Of a stretch of DNA of 14,432 nt, positions 1-7,529 are shown piece by piece. A program made the translations under genes and the position numbers. Position 1 is the first letter of the stretch. Every line of letters begins with the position of its first letter. The stretch comes from a virus (taxonomy: Duplodnaviria; Heunggongvirae; Uroviricota; Caudoviricetes). Location: IMG/VR virus record IMGVR_UViG_651053020_000002. One strand, 5' to 3'. Below the pieces are notes generated by a model. That model was not told the DNA's origin. It ran no database searches and saw nothing but the letters and a program-made list of their open reading frames with translations.

Positions 1-300
1 ATGACAAAAACAGTATCAACCAGTAAAAAACCCCGTAAACAGCATTCGCCTGAATTTCGCAGTGAAGCCCTGAAGCTTGCTGAACGCATCGGTGTTACTG
101 CCGCAGCCCGTGAACTCAGCCTGTATGAATCACAACTCTACAACTGGCGCAGTAAACAGCAAAATCAGCAGACGTCTTCTGAACGTGAACTGGAGATGTC
201 TACCGAGATTGCACGTCTCAAACGCCAGCTGGCAGAACGGGATGAAGAGCTGGCTATCCTCCAAAAGGCCGCGACATACTTCGCGAAGCGCCTGAAATGA
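1..300 (+). CDS. insE: IS3 OrfA transposase subunit (HTH, leucine-zipper-like C-terminus)
   Basis: 99-aa [56 protein letters not shown]..., recognised as IS3 OrfA; stop overlaps orfB start (ATGA). Confidence 0.93.
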
Positions 301-1163
301 AGTATGTCTTTATTGAAAAACATCAGGCTGAGTTCAGCATCAAAGCAATGTGCCGCGTGCTCCGGGTGGCCCGCAGCGGCTGGTATACGTGGTGTCAGCG
401 GCGGACAAGGATAAGCACGCGTCAGCAGTTCCGCCAACACTGCGACAGCGTTGTCCTCGCGGCTTTTACCCGGTCAAAACAGCGTTACGGTGCCCCACGC
501 CTGACGGATGAACTGCGTGCTCAGGGTTACCCCTTTAACGTAAAAACCGTGGCGGCAAGCCTGCGCCGTCAGGGACTGAGGGCAAAGGCCTCCCGGAAGT
601 TCAGCCCGGTCAGCTACCGCGCACACGGCCTGCCTGTGTCAGAAAATCTGTTGGAGCAGGATTTTTACGCCAGTGGCCCGAACCAGAAGTGGGCAGGAGA
701 CATCACGTACTTACGTACAGATGAAGGCTGGCTGTATCTGGCAGTGGTCATTGACCTGTGGTCACGTGCCGTTATTGGCTGGTCAATGTCGCCACGCATG
801 ACGGCGCAACTGGCCTGCGATGCCCTGCAGATGGCGCTGTGGCGGCGTAAGAGGCCCCGGAACGTTATCGTTCACACGGACCGTGGAGGCCAGTACTGTT
901 CAGCAGATTATCAGGCGCAACTGAAGCGGCATAATCTGCGTGGAAGTATGAGCGCAAAAGGTTGCTGCTACGATAATGCCTGCGTGGAAAGCTTCTTTCA
1001 TTCGCTGAAAGTGGAATGTATCCATGGAGAACACTTTATCAGCCGGGAAATAATGCGGGCAACGGTGTTTAATTATATCGAATGTGATTACAATCGGTGG
1101 CGGCGGCACAGTTGGTGTGGCGGCCTCAGTCCGGAACAATTTGAAAACAAGAACCTCGCTTAG
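297..1163 (+). CDS. insF: IS3 OrfB transposase catalytic subunit (DDE/integrase core); normally expressed as an OrfAB fusion by programmed -1 frameshifting
   Basis: 288-aa ORF containing the characteristic ...[34 protein letters not shown]...[10 protein letters not shown]...[11 protein letters not shown]... motifs of IS3-family transposases. Confidence 0.93.
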
Positions 1164-1193
1164 GCCTGTGTCCATATTACGTGGGTAGGATCA
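1155..1193 (+). repeat. IS3 right terminal inverted repeat
   Basis: Sequence ...CTCGCTTAGGCCTGTGTCCATATTACGTGGGTAGGATCA ends in the IS3 terminal TGATC... on the complementary strand. Confidence 0.85.
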
Positions 1194-2131
1194 GCTTTAC
1201 TAAAATTCATCGTCAATGTATTGGCTTTAACCTGCGCTCCGCGCTCTGCTTGTGAAGTTGAACGAAAAAAATGCACTAAGTATGCACTGACTGCATAGTC
1301 ACGGCAGCGGGCTACTACATCGCGTAAACTCCAGTTAATCGCATTGAGGCGAAGAGAAAGAGGAATTGCGATTTTGCTCCCGGTCTTTTCCTGAATGACA
1401 TGAAGATGATCATCCCAAATATCGCTAAATTTCATACGCGAAATATCACCTAACCGCTGACCAGTAACCAGCGCTAACAGCATGGCATTTCCCATGTAAC
1501 GATGAGTAGCGTCTGCGATATCGAAGATTTTTTTCCATTCTTCAAGGCTCAGCCGTTGTCGGGTAATTTTTCTTCTTGGTTGTTTAGTGGCTAATGCTGG
1601 GTTATAGCCAGGAGGTACTTCTCCGTAGTGCTGCGCCTCTTTGAAAACATCAATCAGGACGGAGCGAACTACTTGTGCCATTCTTGGCCGCCCAGCGGCG
1701 ATATACTCATCAAGCAATTGTGCTATATCTCTGACATCAACGGCTGAGATCAACTTCATTCCTGCTCGTTCTCTGAGCAAGGATACTGGTTTAGCTTTTT
1801 GTTTATAGGTGTTGAGTCTTATATCACCACTTTTAAGCCTGTCATCCTGGATCGCTTGATAGCGATCTAACCAGGTTGACGTTGTGATAGCCTTTCCTTT
1901 GCTGGTTGCGATCCTGTCACTGATAGCCAGAATCTGCCGGGTTCTTTGTTCAGCCAGGCGAGTGTTGGCCTCAGTGGCAATAGCGATAGCTTCAGCTTCG
2001 TTTGTTCCCAAAGCATGGAATTTTCCTGTCACTGGATGCTTATACCGCCAATAGACTTTATTTACCTTCCTACTATAAAGCGGATATAAGTTAGGGACTG
2101 AAACATTATTCTTACGCGGTCTGGCTGCCAT
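1194..2131 (-). pseudogene. intE: Prophage tyrosine integrase (lambda Int family), C-terminally truncated by the IS3 insertion; the ORF reads ~10 codons into IS3 before a stop at 1160
   Basis: Minus-strand ORF 1160..2131 begins MAARPRKNNVSVPNLYPL... and aligns with lambda Int through the conserved Arg (..LVTGQRLGDISRMKFSDI..) and Lys (..EKTGSKIAIP..) boxes, but the region that would carry the H-x-x-R and catalytic Tyr is replaced by IS3-derived codons. Confidence 0.85.
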
Positions 2132-2357
2132 TACTCAAAATCCGTTGCAAAAGTAATGAGTCATTTTTCTTGATTACAGGTGTTACCAACTCCCCAACTA
2201 ACTCGGCGTCCTCACGCACTCGCCATAACCGGCCTTGTTTCATGGCCGGTGGACAAAATAAATTCTGCTTAGCATAACGACGCAATGTGGACACACTTGG
2301 AGGATTACTTCTGTATTTTTCAGCAGCCCATTCTTCAAGAGTTAACATTTGAAGCAT
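2112..2357 (-). CDS. xisE: Excisionase (lambda Xis-like winged-helix protein)
   Basis: 81-aa ORF MLQMLTLEEWAAEKYRSNPPSVSTLRRYAKQNLFCPPAMKQGRLWRV... resembles lambda Xis (..LTLQEWNARQ.. pattern); overlaps integrase start by 20 nt, typical xis-int arrangement. Confidence 0.8.
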   Translation of the reverse strand: MLQMLTLEEWAAEKYRSNPPSVSTLRRYAKQNLFCPPAMKQGRLWRVREDAELVGELVTPVIKKNDSLLLQRILSNGSQTA

Positions 2358-2430
2358 ATGCGATCACCTTATTACTACACTAACTGCTTAGTCTCAGCAT
2401 ATCGACCCTGCACGGTCGGTTAGTTTCTCC

Positions 2431-2519
2431 ACAAAACAGAGAAGAGCACCTGTGGCCACAGCTATCAGGATGGGTCGGGTTATTAACCCGTCATCCGGGG
2501 ATACTCTTCTCTGTTTTGT
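2431..2519. repeat. Perfect 16-bp inverted repeat (ACAAAACAGAGAAGAG at 2431-2446 / CTCTTCTCTGTTTTGT at 2504-2519) enclosing inner palindromes (CTGTGGCCACAG 2451-2462; GGGTTATTAACCC about 2476-2488)
   Basis: Read directly from the sequence; the arms are exact reverse complements. Confidence 0.6.
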
Positions 2520-2525
2520 AAAAAG

Positions 2526-2565
2526 GGCGGTACCAGAAAGGACTAAGGAAAAAACTGGTACCGCC
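2526..2565 (-). terminator. Candidate rho-independent terminator for a leftward (minus-strand) transcript: perfect 11-bp GC-rich stem (GGCGGTACCAG / CTGGTACCGCC) with 18-nt loop, followed on the minus strand by CTTTTTAC
   Basis: Stem arms at 2526-2536 and 2555-2565 are exact reverse complements; a T-run follows on the minus strand (plus-strand 2519-2525 GTAAAAAG). Confidence 0.4.
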
Positions 2566-2821
2566 AAGACTACACACAGCATAAAGTTGTGGTGTCGGGT
2601 GCCCCCGGTGCCTGGCGAAGGTTGCACACCAGGCGGGTGGGTATCCACAGAAGGTCGATTGTCAGCCTCAACCTTAACCCGCGTGCGCTGAGCCGCATTC
2701 ACCACAACGCTAAGGATTCTCTCTGGTTGAAAATACTTAGCTGTTATGTGCCTGTCTTTTCACCACTTCAGGCTCGGTGGTATGCTGGAGTTCTCACACA
2801 GCCAGCAAGCAAGGAAACTTA

Positions 2822-3163
2822 ATGAACCAGTTTTATGTTCACGTTCGTCTATTTGAAGACACAGCCGAACAGACCAAAAAATTTGAAGAATTAATGCTTA
2901 ACTTTCTGTACCAGAAAACAGTTAAAGAGTCTGACGATAGCTGCTGCAGACTGATTCCAGAGGGATATATCCTCAAAAGTACAATGAACTGCCAACAAAT
3001 CCTTGATCAAACATTTTCAATTGCTAACAGTGCCGGTGTTGACGCAAATATATTTGTCTGTAAATTTGAACAAAGCGCATGCTTACTTCCGTCTGCTTCC
3101 TTAGTTGGTAACGATTTCGTTCATTACGATCTTACGCCTAAGCCCATCAAGCTCGATTCTTAA
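2822..3163 (+). CDS. ymfI: Uncharacterised prophage protein (113 aa), opposite in orientation to the flanking leftward genes
   Basis: ORF 2777..3163 with probable start at ATG 2822 (MNQFYVHVRLF...), preceded by GGAAACTT; size and position match my recollection of e14 ymfI; no recognisable domain. Confidence 0.6.
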   Translation: MNQFYVHVRLFEDTAEQTKKFEELMLNFLYQKTVKESDDSCCRLIPEGYILKSTMNCQQILDQTFSIANSAGVDANIFVCKFEQSACLLPSASLVGNDFVHYDLTPKPIKLDS

Positions 3164-3409
3164 AGCCTTAACCATTGTGTCGTGATAAACACGGCTCACC
3201 TTCTCTCCATTGCATGGCAGAGGGGTGAGTGTGTTAGCCATGAAATTCATGAACTCGGTTCGACCAGGGGCTTGCGCCCCGCAAGTCTTTAATGCCTGTT
3301 TTGCTAACAAAATGCGGGCCTCAGTGCCTGCATTTGGCTCTATCTGCTGCAAACGTTTAGCGTCTTCCAGCAACAATGCGATCACATGCTTCAAATTCTG
3401 CTCATTCAT
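3101..3409 (-). CDS. ymfJ: Uncharacterised prophage protein (102 aa)
   Basis: 102-aa minus-strand ORF MNEQNLKHVIALLLEDAKRLQQIEPNAGTEARILLAKQ...; convergent with ymfI and overlapping it by 63 nt at the 3' ends. Confidence 0.6.
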   Translation of the reverse strand: MNEQNLKHVIALLLEDAKRLQQIEPNAGTEARILLAKQALKTCGAQAPGRTEFMNFMANTLTPLPCNGEKVSRVYHDTMVKALRIELDGLRRKIVMNEIVTN

Positions 3410-3511
3410 CTATTCTCTCCACTGAAATCATCCGCTAACGAATCATCCCGGTCTTCGTACGTACCGGGCGGGCTACTTCGTGGGCGTCCTGCCTGTTTGT
3501 TGTTTCTCTTG

Positions 3512-3539
3512 GGTACATTATGTATCTCAAAGGTACATT
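3512..3539. promoter_or_regulatory. OL-like operator candidate: GTAC-cored repeat (GGTACATT at 3512-3519 and 3532-3539; TATGTATctcaaagGTACATT fits GTAY-N7-GTAC)
   Basis: Shares core and spacing with the two palindromes in the cohE-croE intergenic region; lies between the cohE terminator and the ymfJ start. Confidence 0.45.
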
Positions 3540-3546
3540 GTCAAGT

Positions 3547-3571
3547 ATAAAAAAACCTGCCGAAGCAGGTT
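3547..3571 (-). terminator. Rho-independent terminator downstream of cohE (minus strand): 7-bp stem ACCTGC(A)/GCAGGT with a UUCG tetraloop followed by a 7-T run
   Basis: Plus-strand A7 (3549-3555) then stem 3554-3560 / 3565-3571 with loop CGAA; on the minus strand this reads hairpin then TTTTTTT; starts 12 nt after the cohE stop. Confidence 0.65.
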
Positions 3572-3583
3572 CATAAACATTGA

Positions 3584-4258
3584 TTAGGCTTTGATTTTGT
3601 ATCTTCTTGGTTTTCCTGAGAAAATCACAGTACCAATTATAGAGCAATTACCGTTGATCTTAATGTAAGGCTCAGGCCAGTTTGGGTTTAACGCTTTGAG
3701 ATAACGCTGTGTCCCATCTTCTATCAACCTTTTGAAGGTGGTTTCACCTGTATCGTGCATCAATGCAATAACGTCGTCACCGTGGCAGGCAGGTACTTCA
3801 GGATCGACAAAAATCATGTCTCCCGGGCGGTACTCATCAATCATTGAATCACCTATTACCCGCAAGATATAAGTCATTTCCCCACAGGGTACAGGGCAGG
3901 GATACGTTTCTGCTGTGCTCAAATCAACCTCAGAATATCCAACTTCTTTCCATGCTCCGGCCTGTACCCATGATATGACAGGGACTAATGTGATTTGTTT
4001 ATTAGTGATTGAAACATCAGGTTTTTTTGTGATGTTCGTTGTCTGGTGTTCTTGATCGAGCCATCCTACAGGCAGGTCGAAACATTTTTCGATGTGTCGT
4101 GCCATGCTGTCACCGATATTTTTAGTAGCACCATCTCCCATAAACCTGCTGGTCTGGGTTGGCTCGCGATCAATCATAGTGGCAAAGGAAGAATTCCCGC
4201 CAACACCATCTCTCAGTTTTCTGGCGTTAGACCGCCGGATGTCATGGATTGTTTTCAT
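3584..4258 (-). CDS. cohE: Prophage CI-like repressor: N-terminal HTH DNA-binding region and C-terminal LexA/S24-type autopeptidase domain
   Basis: 224-aa ORF; C-terminal part ..ILRVIGDSMIDEYRPGDMIFVDPEVPACHGDDVIALMHDTGETTFKRL.. carries the Ser (GDSM) and Lys of S24 peptidases; divergent from a Cro-like gene. Confidence 0.88.
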   Translation of the reverse strand: MKTIHDIRRSNARKLRDGVGGNSSFATMIDREPTQTSRFMGDGATKNIGDSMARHIEKCFDLPVGWLDQEHQTTNITKKPDVSITNKQITLVPVISWVQAGAWKEVGYSEVDLSTAETYPCPVPCGEMTYILRVIGDSMIDEYRPGDMIFVDPEVPACHGDDVIALMHDTGETTFKRLIEDGTQRYLKALNPNWPEPYIKINGNCSIIGTVIFSGKPRRYKIKA

Positions 4259-4273
4259 AACGAAATTAAAACC

Positions 4274-4294
4274 CTTGTACCGTTAAGGTACAAG
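4274..4294. promoter_or_regulatory. Operator candidate O(R)-a: 21-bp palindrome CTTGTACC-GTTAA-GGTACAAG
   Basis: Arms are exact reverse complements; sits just upstream of a -35-like TTGAAG (4299-4304) in the cohE-croE divergent region. Confidence 0.6.
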
Positions 4295-4322
4295 TATCTT
4301 GAAGGTTCATTTCAATCATGTA

Positions 4323-4345
4323 ATATGTACACCGGAGGTACATAT
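4323..4345. promoter_or_regulatory. Operator candidate O(R)-b: 23-bp palindrome ATATGTAC-ACCGGAG-GTACATAT overlapping the putative croE -10 (TAATAT 4321-4326) and the croE ribosome-binding site
   Basis: Arms are exact reverse complements; GTAC cores are 11 bp apart, the same spacing as in O(R)-a. Confidence 0.6.
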
Positions 4346-4348
4346 TGT

Positions 4349-4549
4349 ATGAAAGCGTATTGGGACTCTTTAACCAAAGAACAGCAGGGCGAGTTGGCCG
4401 GAAAAGTTGGCTCAACACCTGGCTACTTACGGCTGGTTTTCAATGGCTATAAAAAAGCCAGTTTTGTGCTGGCTAAAAAACTTGAGCAATACACATCAGG
4501 TGCAATTACGAAATCTGACTTAAGACCGGATATCTATCCGAAAGATTAG
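4349..4549 (+). CDS. croE: Cro-like small HTH regulator (66 aa)
   Basis: ATG at 4349 preceded by GGAGG (4334-4338); MKAYWDSLTKEQQGELAGKVGSTPGYLRLVFNGYKKASFVLAKKLEQYTSGAITKSDLRPDIYPKD has a Cro/YdaS-like HTH; the upstream part of ORF 4046..4549 overlaps cohE on the opposite strand and is not expected to be coding. Confidence 0.8.
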   Translation: MKAYWDSLTKEQQGELAGKVGSTPGYLRLVFNGYKKASFVLAKKLEQYTSGAITKSDLRPDIYPKD

Positions 4550-4580
4550 CAGAACACTTTCAATTTTTAACCACAGAACG

Positions 4581-5150
4581 ATGAGGCTAATCGTGGGTAA
4601 GCATCACTGGAAAATAGAAAAACAGCCTGAGTGGTACGTGAAAGCTGTCAGAAAAACTATCGCGGCGTTGCCGAGTGGTTACGCTGAAGCGGCTGACTGG
4701 CTCGATGTAACAGAAAACGCTTTATTCAACCGCCTTCGTGCAGATGGCGATCAGATTTTCCCGCTGGGATGGGCAATGGTTTTACAGCGTGCTGGTGGCA
4801 CTCACTTCATTGCTGATGCTGTGGCGCAGTCTGCAAATGGCGTCTTTGTGTCTCTTCCTGACGTCGAGGATGTGGACAACGCCGATATTAACCAGCGTCT
4901 GCTGGAAGTCATTGAACAGATCGGCAGTTATTCAAAACAGATTCGTTCAGCAATCGAAGACGGTGTAGTGGAACCGCATGAGAAGACAGCAATTAACGAC
5001 GAGCTGTATCTCTCAATTTCGAAGCTGCAGGAGCATGCAGCACTTGTCTACAAAATTTTTTGCATTTCAGAAAGTAATGACGCCCGCGAGTGTGCAGCTC
5101 CGGGCGTCGTGGCGTCGATTGCTTCTGGTTGTGGAGAAACTAACGCATGA
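4581..5150 (+). CDS. ymfL: Prophage CII/YdaT-like putative regulator (start uncertain: ATG 4581 or GTG 4593, which has a GAGG 6 nt upstream)
   Basis: 189-aa ORF immediately downstream of the Cro-like gene, the position a CII analogue occupies in lambdoid phages. Confidence 0.7.
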
Positions 5151-5485
5151 ACAGTTTAACAACACACTACCGTCGCTCGCAACTGATTGCGCTTCCTGTA
5201 CCGGGTGGAAAAGCGAAGGTGGAATATTGCTATGCAGTGAATGTACCAGGTGACAGGGAAATTGTAACCCACAGCTTTGCAGAGTGGGCTGTGGGTGATT
5301 TCAACCGGCAGAAGGAGACAGTCCTTTGCGACAAGTTAACCGCTGGTTCAAAGATCACTACGGAGTGCCCGTCAGAGTCATTCGTTGGGAGCCGGAAACA
5401 CAACGGGTTATCTACCTCCGCGAAGGTTATGAGCATGAATGCTTCAGCCCGCTCGAACAGTTTCGTCGTAAATTCAGGGAAATAG
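5147..5485 (+). CDS. ymfM: Small prophage protein (112 aa); I recall ymfM being reported as an SOS-inducible cell-division inhibitor
   Basis: 112-aa ORF whose start overlaps the ymfL stop (ATGA); function from memory of the literature, not visible in the sequence. Confidence 0.65.
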
Positions 5486-5494
5486 AGGTCGGTC

Positions 5495-6862
5495 ATGAGC
5501 ACTAAATTAACCGGCTATGTATGGGATGGTTGCGCTGCATCAGGCATGAAGTTATCCAGCGTGGCAATTATGGCCCGCCTGGCTGATTTCAGTAATGACG
5601 AAGGTGTGTGCTGGCCATCAATTGAAACCATTGCCCGTCAGATTGGCGCGGGGATGAGTACCGTCAGAACGGCTATCGCACGGCTGGAAGCAGAAGGCTG
5701 GTTAACGCGTAAGGCGCGTCGCCAGGGTGATGGTTCATCACCCCACTGTGCCGTGGTGGATGAATATCACGAGCACGCCACAGATGCGCTTTACACCACG
5801 ATGCTTACCGGGATGGGGGCGCGACGCCAGCCACTGATGTGGGCCATTACCACCGCCGGGTACAACATTGAGGGGCCGTGCTACGACAAACGGCGGGAAG
5901 TCATCGAGATGCTCAACGGCTCGGTGCCAAACGATGAACTGTTCGGGATCATCTATACCGTTGATGAAGGTGACGACTGGACCGACCCGCAGGTGCTGGA
6001 AAAAGCCAATCCAAATATTGGCGTGTCGGTTTATCGCGAATTTTTGTTAAGTCAGCAGCAGCGTGCGAAAAATAACGCCCGTCTGGCAAACGTCTTTAAA
6101 ACAAAACACCTCAATATCTGGGCGTCGGCGCGTTCGGCGTATTTCAACCTGGTGAGCTGGCAGAGCTGCGAGGATAAATCACTGACCCTTGAGCAGTTCG
6201 AGGGGCAGCCGTGCATTCTGGCCTTTGACCTGGCGCGTAAGCTGGATATGAACAGCATGGCGCGACTTTATACCCGCGAGATTGACGGTAAAACGCATTA
6301 CTACAGTGTGGCCCCGCGTTTCTGGGTACCGTATGACACGGTGTACAGCGTCGAGAAAAATGAAGATCGCCGGACAGCCGAACGCTTTCAGAAATGGGTG
6401 GAAATGGGCGTTCTGACCGTTACCGATGGTGCGGAGGTGGATTATCGCTACATCCTCGAAGAGGCCAAAGCGGCGAACAAAATCAGCCCGGTCAGTGAGT
6501 CACCCATCGACCCCTTCGGGGCGACCGGGCTGTCACATGACCTTGCTGATGAAGACCTGAACCCCGTCACCATCATTCAGAACTACACCAACATGTCCGA
6601 TCCGATGAAAGAGCTGGAAGCGGCGATTGAATCGGGGCGCTTTCATCATGACGGCAATCCCATCATGACCTGGTGTATCGGCAACGTGGTCGGCAAAACC
6701 ATTCCGGGTAACGATGATGTGGTGAAGCCCGTCAAGGAGCAGGCGGAAAACAAAATCGATGGTGCAGTTGCGCTGATTATGGCGGTTGGCAGAGCCATGC
6801 TGTACGAGAAAGAAGACACGCTGTCTGATCACATTGAGTCCTACGGGATCCGCTCGCTTTAA
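5495..6862 (+). CDS. ymfN: Deletion-fusion ORF: N-terminal phage replication-initiator (O-like) HTH region fused in frame to the C-terminal part of a terminase large subunit; I recall this as the e14 ymfN region (oweE/aaaE fragments in later annotation)
   Basis: 455-aa ORF; the N-terminus (..[50 protein letters not shown]..) looks like replication-protein HTH, the remainder (..[41 protein letters not shown]..) looks like terminase large subunit; ribosome-binding site AGAGG upstream. Confidence 0.8.
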
Positions 6863-6873
6863 CTGAGGTAATT

Positions 6874-7056
6874 ATGATCATGCTGATTCTCGCGCCTCTG
6901 GTGGGCGTGCTGGGTGCGCTTTTGCTGGCGTATGGTGCCTGGCTGATTTATCCCCCGGCGGGTTTTGTTGTTGCCGGGGCGCTGTGCCTGTTCTGGTCGT
7001 GGCTGGTGGCGCGATATCTCGACCGTACACAGTCGTCTGTCGGCGGAGGTAAATAG
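6874..7056 (+). CDS. ymfR: Small hydrophobic (membrane) protein, 60 aa
   Basis: [49 protein letters not shown]... is strongly hydrophobic; GAGG 5 nt upstream; stop overlaps the next start (TAGTG). Confidence 0.5.
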
Positions 7057-7529
7057 TGTTCTTTTCGGGATTATTTCAACGAAAAAGTGACGCACCGGTG
7101 ACCACGCCAGCAGAGCTGGCGGATGCCATCGGGCTGTCGTATGACACCTATACCGGAAAGCAGATCAGCAGTCAGCGGGCTATGCGACTGACGGCGGTTT
7201 TTTCCTGCGTCAGAGTGCTGGCAGAGTCGGTCGGGATGTTGCCCTGCAATCTGTATCACCTGAACGGCAGCCTGAAGCAGAGAGCCACCGGCGAACGTCT
7301 GCATAAACTGATCTCCACGCATCCCAATGGCTATATGACGCCGCAGGAGTTCTGGGAGCTGGTGGTCACCTGTCTGTGCCTGAGGGGAAACTTTTACGCC
7401 TACAAAGTGAAAGCATTTGGCGAAGTGGCTGAACTGCTGCCCGTCGATCCCGGCTGTGTGGTATATGCGCTGGGAAGGTGTCAGCGATGGCCTGAAGGTG
7501 ACCGCCGGGAGTGTTATTCAGCGCGATGA
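7056..7529 (+). pseudogene. beeE: Phage portal protein N-terminal fragment (GTG start), cut off by an internal prophage deletion
   Basis: 157-aa ORF with portal-like N-terminal sequence that ends where a baseplate-J-like reading frame takes over (junction about 7440-7480); GGAGG 6 nt upstream of GTG. Confidence 0.7.

Follow-up and report, generated by a model that had tools for sequence, protein, structure and literature searches.

The stretch of DNA analysed here (14,432 nt, hereafter the window) begins inside a copy of the insertion sequence IS3, passes at position 1194 into the interrupted integrase gene (intE) of prophage e14 of Escherichia coli K-12, and continues through xisE and the rest of the prophage to mcrA, the right attachment site and the host genes beyond it. 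The coordinates of these features, and the location of the catalytic residues of the integrase, are collected in Table 1.

Table 1. Features of the window and catalytic residues of IntE (numbered as in the intact protein)
Feature	Position	Strand	Basis or remark
IS3, nt 66-1258 of the 1258-bp element	1-1193	+	Match to the intE::IS3 copy of DH1
IS3 orfA (insE), 99 aa	1-300	+	ORF list; layout as insE1 of MG1655 IS3A
IS3 orfB (insF), 288 aa	297-1163	+	ORF list
IS3 right terminal inverted repeat	1155-1193		Ends ...GGGTAGGATCA at 1193; inner boundary approximate
intE' ORF, 323 aa	1160-2131	-	IntE 1-313 plus 10 IS3-encoded residues; stop at 1160-1162
Target-site duplication, right copy, GCT	1194-1196		Junction comparison with the MG1655 empty site
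e14 right of the insertion, intE' through mcrA to the right prophage end	1194-12737		Order and sequence identical to MG1655
K249 (lambda K235)	1385-1387		Kept in IntE'
R226 (lambda R212)	1454-1456		Kept in IntE'
H330 (lambda H308)			Lost from IntE'
R333 (lambda R311)			Lost from IntE'
H353 (lambda H333)			Lost from IntE'
Y362 (lambda Y342, nucleophile)			Lost from IntE'
xisE excisionase, intact, 81 aa	2112-2357	-	WP_000939945.1; 100% identity to MG1655
att core, 11 bp, ATGCTGCGCCA	12738-12748		Comparison of attL, attR and JM109
icdC, original icd 3' end at attR	12738-12902	+	MG1655 annotation

The truncated integrase and its neighbours

Position 1 of the window is the ATG of insE, and the first 65 bp of IS3, including its left inverted repeat, lie outside; this agrees with the original prediction, which had placed the other end of the element beyond the window, and in genomes with the same junction that end is indeed found 65 bp to the left. 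The corresponding copy in DH1 is 1258 bp long and 100% identical to IS3A of MG1655 across 1255 bp. The two open reading frames overlap by 4 nt (ATGA) and are joined in RefSeq as a single CDS ('IS3-like element IS3 family transposase, programmed frameshift'), so that, following this annotation, the transposase is taken to be an OrfAB fusion made through a -1 frameshift. The terminal inverted repeats are imperfect and start with TG (TGATCTTACCCA... and TGATCCTACCCA...), with matching blocks extending to about 39 bp; compared as reverse complements, both ends have in common TGATC.TACCCA...TGGACAC...CTAAG.GAG. Length and identity, inverted repeats, the two overlapping frames and a 3-bp duplication with a known empty site all identify the element as IS3.

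The right inverted repeat ends at 1193 and the minus-strand integrase frame enters IS3, as had been noticed from the sequence and as the open reading frame at 1160-2131 confirms. The first 313 residues of its product, IntE', are identical to MG1655 IntE (375 aa), the third base of codon 313 being supplied by IS3 and still giving Ala, and the last 10 come from the inverted repeat of IS3; the earlier count of 312 native codons plus about 10 was thus essentially right. RefSeq treats the gene as a pseudogene 'missing C-terminus'. The description of IS3 as sitting at the 3' end of the integrase gene needs correction, since the element interrupts the gene 62 codons upstream of the native stop, but the catalytic C-terminus has been removed as proposed.

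To map the catalytic residues, intact IntE was aligned to lambda Int (PDB 1z1b; residues 15-374, E = 3e-55). All six catalytic residues of lambda Int are conserved in intact IntE. The break falls after residue 313, and therefore four of the six are encoded only in the orphan 62-codon remnant beyond IS3; the claim that the Arg and Lys boxes are present and the H-x-x-R and Tyr region is replaced holds in this alignment. The Pfam domain Phage_integrase (PF00589, 172 positions) is matched over positions 2-168 by intact IntE, over 2-116 by IntE' and over 125-168 by the remnant alone. The Arm-DNA-bind_1 domain (PF09003) covers residues 1-73 (E = 1e-37) in both IntE' and intact IntE. Compared with a functional tyrosine integrase, IntE' has the arm-binding domain, but a complete PF00589 domain and the full R-K-H-R-H-Y set are absent. 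The core-binding domain is also kept in IntE'.

To the right of the insertion, positions 1194-14325 of the window correspond at 100% identity to 1199869-1213000 of MG1655, where the e14 feature ends at 1211412 (position 12737 of the window); beyond attR and icdC the window extends into iraM and ycgX according to the MG1655 annotation. This DNA is assigned to e14 by its match to the MG1655 prophage in sequence and gene order, by icdC at attR, and by icd with attL in the carrier genomes. The excisionase gene, which the original prediction considered intact, is so, and the cargo that it listed (ymfK/cohE, pinE and mcrA) is likewise 100% identical to MG1655. The icdC segment and the icd 3' end brought by e14 share 87% identity over 216 bp, the longest stretch without a mismatch being 29 bp. 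The invertible P segment has the MG1655 orientation in the window and is inverted in XL1-Blue, DH1 and S17-1; since both orientations exist among carriers, inversion by Pin, which is independent of IntE, still takes place.

Insertion site, carriers and age of the allele

The flanks of IS3 were examined in four carriers of this junction, DH1 (NC_017625), XL1-Blue, S17-1 and TUM24567. In all four IS3 is complete (1258 bp), and on its left side come the final 62 codons of intE, annotated in RefSeq as an integrase pseudogene 'missing N-terminus', followed by lit, ymfE, ymfD and icd, collinear with MG1655. The left copy of the GCT target is located 1261 bp upstream of the right copy, outside the window. 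Read base by base, the DH1 junctions are ctctcGCT/TGATC... on the left and ...GATCA/GCTttac on the right, and those of TUM24567 are the same; the empty site in MG1655 is ctctcGCTttac. Once IS3 and one GCT are taken out, DH1 equals MG1655 exactly across 1439 bp. Because removal of these elements restores the exact MG1655 site, IS3 at intE is a simple insertion and not the edge of a deletion. A duplication of 3 bp is typical of IS3, and members of its family transpose by a copy-out-paste-in mechanism. The comparison of TUM24567 with MG1655 gave a single SNP in the left arm, in ymfE, and that with the whole window also a single SNP, inside IS3, at window position 371; the laboratory strains of the TUM series are the closest matches over the full window, at this one difference.

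These observations settle several points that had been raised from the window sequence. A true insertion had been suspected, and the complete IS3, flanked by GCT on both sides and with an exact empty site in MG1655, supports it; the left end of IS3 and the 3-bp duplication, expected to the left of the window, were found in the carrier genomes. As to whether the integrase 3' end resumes there or the left arm has been deleted, intE does resume past IS3, and lit, ymfE, ymfD and icd/attL are present. The statement that the K-12 reference has no IS3 at this place and has lit beyond intE matches the MG1655 annotation.

The distribution of the allele was determined by searching 5426 complete E. coli genomes with a 300-bp probe centred on the junction. 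The junction was found in 47 of them, 46 at full probe cover and one at 83%, and 47 complete E. coli genomes likewise contain a full-length match to the first 2700 bp of the window. All junction carriers with a recognisable strain name are K-12 laboratory strains, the others being labelled as laboratory-developed or K-12. They include DH1 and its engineered derivatives, DH5-alpha (several independent assemblies), NEB 5-alpha, XL1-Blue, S17-1 and ST18, along with the 'Laboratory developed' TUM series and a few records labelled just K-12 or MG1655. In DH1, DH5-alpha, NEB 5-alpha, XL1-Blue, S17-1 and ST18 the insertion has the same position, orientation, duplication and sequence as in the window. 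A probe for the empty site matched 469 records, 282 of them at 99% identity or more (K-12-type, including about 48 carriers in which the match is split); the uninterrupted site is present in 419 genomes, and about 230 K-12-type genomes have it. The insertion is thus specific to a lineage, in line with what had been anticipated.

Regarding its age, DH1, XL1-Blue and TUM24567 have in common the change E115K in purB, which is taken to be the purB20 allele. S17-1 has wild-type purB, yet it carries intE::IS3. We assume from its pedigree that S17-1 derives from strain 294 (MM294) by a route separate from that of DH1. If so, the presence of the insertion without purB20 makes it older than DH1, and it probably arose in MM294/294 or an earlier ancestor.

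Predicted loss of e14 excision and alternative readings

Tyrosine recombinases cleave DNA through their conserved tyrosine, and XisE merely directs the reaction; loss of the tyrosine abolishes strand cleavage, although the N-terminal domains can still bind DNA. The explanation of the locus that we regard as very likely is the transposition of IS3 into codon 313/314 of a lambda-family integrase gene, probably in MM294/294 or an earlier ancestor of DH1, DH5-alpha, XL1-Blue and S17-1, with duplication of GCT and a block to excision as the expected consequence. The 5' piece of intE encodes the arm-binding and core-binding domains together with the N-terminal half of the catalytic domain, in which R226 and K249 lie, plus the 10 residues from IS3; H330, R333, H353 and the nucleophile Y362 are left to the 3' piece, an orphan of 62 codons. 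A recombinase without its tyrosine would neither cleave nor rejoin DNA. No second intact intE was found in the carrier genomes, where the 300-bp empty-site probe matches the two halves only. Given the loss of the nucleophile and this result, excision directed by XisE between attL and attR should fail, and e14 would be locked in icd together with lit, ymfK/cohE, pinE and mcrA. From the gene structure, the behaviour of strains with intact intE and the ways in which e14-free relatives arose, we consider with high confidence that the carriers have lost e14 excision.

In a recA1 background the LexA-like e14 repressor YmfK/CohE is not cleaved during the SOS response. Because repressor cleavage is prevented, induction of e14 would also be blocked upstream, which would make a double block to excision in recA1 carriers. 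This concerns the majority of carriers, in which recA1 alone should prevent SOS induction of e14; DH5-alpha is presumably among them. The published genotype of DH1 and XL1-Blue is recA1 (PMC11148124).

Where intE is intact, e14 is an active element. In BW25113 its excision occurs in 1-5 per 10,000 cells, the highest value among nine cryptic prophages, and increases 356-fold with mitomycin C; overproduction of IntE cures the strain of e14, and excision is undetectable for Qin, whose integrase is inactive, and for CP4-44, which has none (PMC3105296). Circles of e14 are induced by UV in MG1655 (bioRxiv 2024.07.17.603846), and e14 excision was described as 'a relatively frequent event' in the ER2796 genome paper (PMC4444293). 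Our literature search found no paper in which e14 excision was measured in DH5-alpha, DH1 or MM294.

It is improbable that e14 can still be excised in spite of a real insertion, by another tyrosine integrase acting in trans, by RecA recombination between icd and icdC, or after precise loss of IS3. K-12 does have several other prophage integrases, but the undetectable excision of Qin and CP4-44 in BW25113, where other integrases are present, argues against cross-complementation (PMC3105296). The 216-bp repeat shared by icd and icdC (87% identity, up to 29 bp without a mismatch) would offer a substrate for homologous recombination; against this, DH1 and XL1-Blue are recA1 by published genotype. 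In recA+ carriers, rare e14 deletion by RecA-dependent icd/icdC recombination could occur, and very rare precise loss of IS3 could restore intE, after which e14 could be lost.

The observation most favourable to continued excision comes from JM109, which was built from DH1 via a recA+ intermediate and mating with Hfr SL10 (PMC11148124). JM109 is free of e14, with a clean icd directly adjoining iraM, and the crossover at this junction lies within the 11-bp core ATGCTGCGCCA, all bases to its right being of the icdC type, which makes it a site-specific product; a RecA-dependent crossover would more probably have fallen in one of the longer stretches of identity. However, purB20, which DH1, XL1-Blue and TUM24567 carry 4.6 kb from attL, is absent from JM109 as well, and a single purB+ e14-free donor patch suffices to replace both. 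We therefore do not take attB of JM109 as proof of excision from intE::IS3: apparently e14 was lost there by replacement with donor DNA and not by excision. Less probably, the DH1 stock used predated purB20 and e14 was excised by some route. The phoP T156T SNP, tried as a left-hand lineage marker, was discarded as uninformative; C600 has the same base, so only the MG1655 reference is variant there. Another e14-free relative, the MM294 derivative ER1821, had e14 removed by P1 transduction (PMC4982283).

Two further readings give the insertion a function, and we regard them as quite doubtful: IntE' might persist as a stable, catalytically dead DNA-binder, on attL/attR or altering expression of nearby genes, for example lit and icd, or the insertion might have been selected in the MM294 lineage against SOS-triggered loss of e14. 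Deletion of intE in BW25113 reportedly reduces early biofilm formation (PMC3105296), and on that account some effect of IntE beyond excision is possible. Were either reading true, the locus would be a modest example of an IS element domesticating a prophage. Under the selection reading, loss of e14 would also cost the cell McrA, Lit and the division inhibitor YmfM.

That IS3 marks the edge of a deletion, in which the end of intE was lost along with the left arm (lit, ymfE, ymfD, attL), leaving a one-ended remnant, is compatible with the window alone because the window starts inside IS3, and an assembly labelled TOP10 (CP080620) has intE' and 56 bp of IS3 joined beside a tRNA-Leu gene near rsmC. 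Nevertheless, we reject this as very unlikely: the flanks of DH1, XL1-Blue, S17-1 and TUM24567, which keep GCT, the remnant and the collinear genes up to icd, are those of a simple insertion, TUM24567 combines that left arm with a match to the whole window except for one SNP, and CP080620 is a single outlier that looks like a misassembly or a mislabelled strain. An artefact in which collapsed repeat copies misplaced IS3 beside intE has a negligible probability, for even if IS3 is multicopy and XL1-Blue CP081007 and TOP10 CP080620 show a truncated IS3 at the junction, 46 assemblies from many laboratories and strains contain the same junction over the whole probe (47 with the 83% one), with a classical 3-bp duplication and an empty site that matches exactly, and in XL1-Blue it derives from Illumina and Nanopore data (PMC11148124).

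Significance and comparison with known systems

With excision very probably lost through interruption of intE, e14 would be fixed in strains used every day for cloning and conjugation (DH1, DH5-alpha, NEB 5-alpha, XL1-Blue, S17-1, ST18), and with it the methylcytosine restriction enzyme McrA, the Lit peptidase and the Pin invertase. Curing of e14 by UV or mitomycin, effective in other K-12 lines, should fail in the carriers, and obtaining McrA-negative derivatives would need transduction or engineering, as for ER1821. The intE::IS3 junction is also a handy marker of the MM294 lineage and exposes mislabelled public assemblies. Otherwise this is an ordinary IS insertion inactivating a prophage integrase in a laboratory lineage, with nothing new for integrase or IS biology.

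The allele itself is already published as a laboratory-strain mutation: the insertion of IS3 in intE was reported, from Illumina and Nanopore data, in the XL1-Blue genome paper (FEBS Open Bio 2024; PMC11148124), and both halves of the gene are pseudogenes in RefSeq. That paper does not address which catalytic residues are missing, how excision is affected or how old the insertion is, and no paper naming intE::IS3 in DH5-alpha was found in our literature search. What is added here is the loss described at residue level, the 3-bp duplication with its empty site, the distribution over 5426 genomes, the dating before DH1 and the reading of JM109.

Compared with the intact e14 of MG1655, the window is 100% identical in DNA from the target site to past attR, with the same xisE, repressor, pin and mcrA. 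The difference lies in the integrase gene, which in MG1655, BW25113 and C600 is uninterrupted (375 aa), e14 being excised in these strains both spontaneously and upon SOS induction, whereas in the window it is split by the 1258-bp IS3. Catalytic mutants of lambda Int such as Y342F carry point changes, while IntE' lacks four of the six catalytic residues along with the C-terminal third of the catalytic domain; because the whole third is gone, and this is no point mutation, the half of the catalytic domain that remains may fail to fold at all. The closest parallels within K-12 are Qin, with an inactive intQ, and CP4-44, without an integrase, which are likewise immobilised by integrase loss. In those prophages, however, the loss is an old decay found in all K-12, whereas intE::IS3 is recent, restricted to one laboratory lineage, and affects what is otherwise the most excision-active prophage of K-12.

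The intE copy of IS3 and its variants

The IS3 element inserted in the e14 integrase gene (intE::IS3) is 1258 bp long and has a complete TGATCTTACCC left end (locus L001, 8936-8940), as seen by comparison with the IS3A locus of MG1655 (L004, 226-232), in which the element is annotated as 1255 bp and the left inverted repeat, where GCC is immediately followed by TCTTACCC, is without the terminal TGA. When flanking loci were compared, a single C/T polymorphism in IS3 orfB, at position 371 of the window, split the genomes with this junction into two groups, C being found in DH1 and the window and T in the carrier genome TUM24567. Bit scores from a 2700-bp search suggest that the allele of the window is common to S17-1, ST18 and one DH5a assembly, and that NEB 5-alpha, XL1-Blue and the remaining TUM strains are one base off the window. 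None of the assemblies listed matched the full window exactly.

Lineage markers and the icd region of JM109

Two sites in the phoP-purB region (locus L007) were compared. At codon 156 of phoP (silent; L007 3981, MG1655 1189980), MG1655 has A while DH1, XL1-Blue, S17-1, C600 and JM109 all have G, and the A variant is therefore private to the MG1655 reference strain. At codon 115 of purB (L007 5645), the E115K change, which we take to be purB20, is present in DH1, XL1-Blue and TUM24567, and absent from S17-1, C600 and JM109. In addition, XL1-Blue and the DH5-alpha-sized TUM24567 have in common variants of PhoQ (WP_046613246.1) and YmfE (WP_077775096.1) (loci L009 and L012), whereas the sequenced DH1 and S17-1 carry the common alleles. 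This suggests that XL1-Blue and DH5-alpha come from one DH1 sub-line, distinct from the sequenced DH1 stock.

In the e14-free icd of JM109, the crossover lies within the 11-bp core ATGCTGCGCCA (icd-iraM junction in L006, NZ_CP117962.1, versus L002 2210-2425 and 17414-17629), even though the icd/icdC homology flanking the core offers identical runs of 29, 26 and 22 bp. JM109 also differs from its parent DH1 in being purB+. Its purB-icd region therefore seems to have been inherited from a donor and not from the DH1 parent.

Records with unexpected labels

The intE::IS3 junction was seen only in DH1/DH5-alpha-type laboratory strains, apart from NZ_CP174267.1 ('K-12 substr. MG1655', 4.60 Mb) and NZ_CP047127.1 ('K-12 strain K-12', 4.58 Mb). 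These two records probably represent strains of the DH5-alpha type whose names are generic or wrong. The 'TOP10' assembly NZ_CP080620.1 (L003, 5914-6994) holds a truncated intE fragment with only the final 56 bp of IS3, and this piece is joined to the sequence around 35 bp past a tRNA-Leu gene adjoining rsmC. e14 is expected to be absent from TOP10/DH10B-type strains. The record has the look of an assembly error caused by repeat collapse, or of a DH5-alpha-type strain that was given the wrong label; alternatively, IS3 has mediated a genuine rearrangement.

Orientation of the P segment

Coordinates of the invertible P segment and its repeats in the window
Feature	Position	Length	Remarks
Invertible P segment (Pin, tail-fibre)	9131-10927	1797 bp	9110-10948 in total with repeats
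Inverted repeats of the P segment	9110-9130 and 10928-10948	21 bp each	95% complementary

The P segment of the window has the same orientation as in MG1655, and is inverted relative to it in DH1, XL1-Blue and S17-1. Both orientations thus occur among carriers of one intE::IS3 allele, which means that switching by Pin continues in these strains' lineage.
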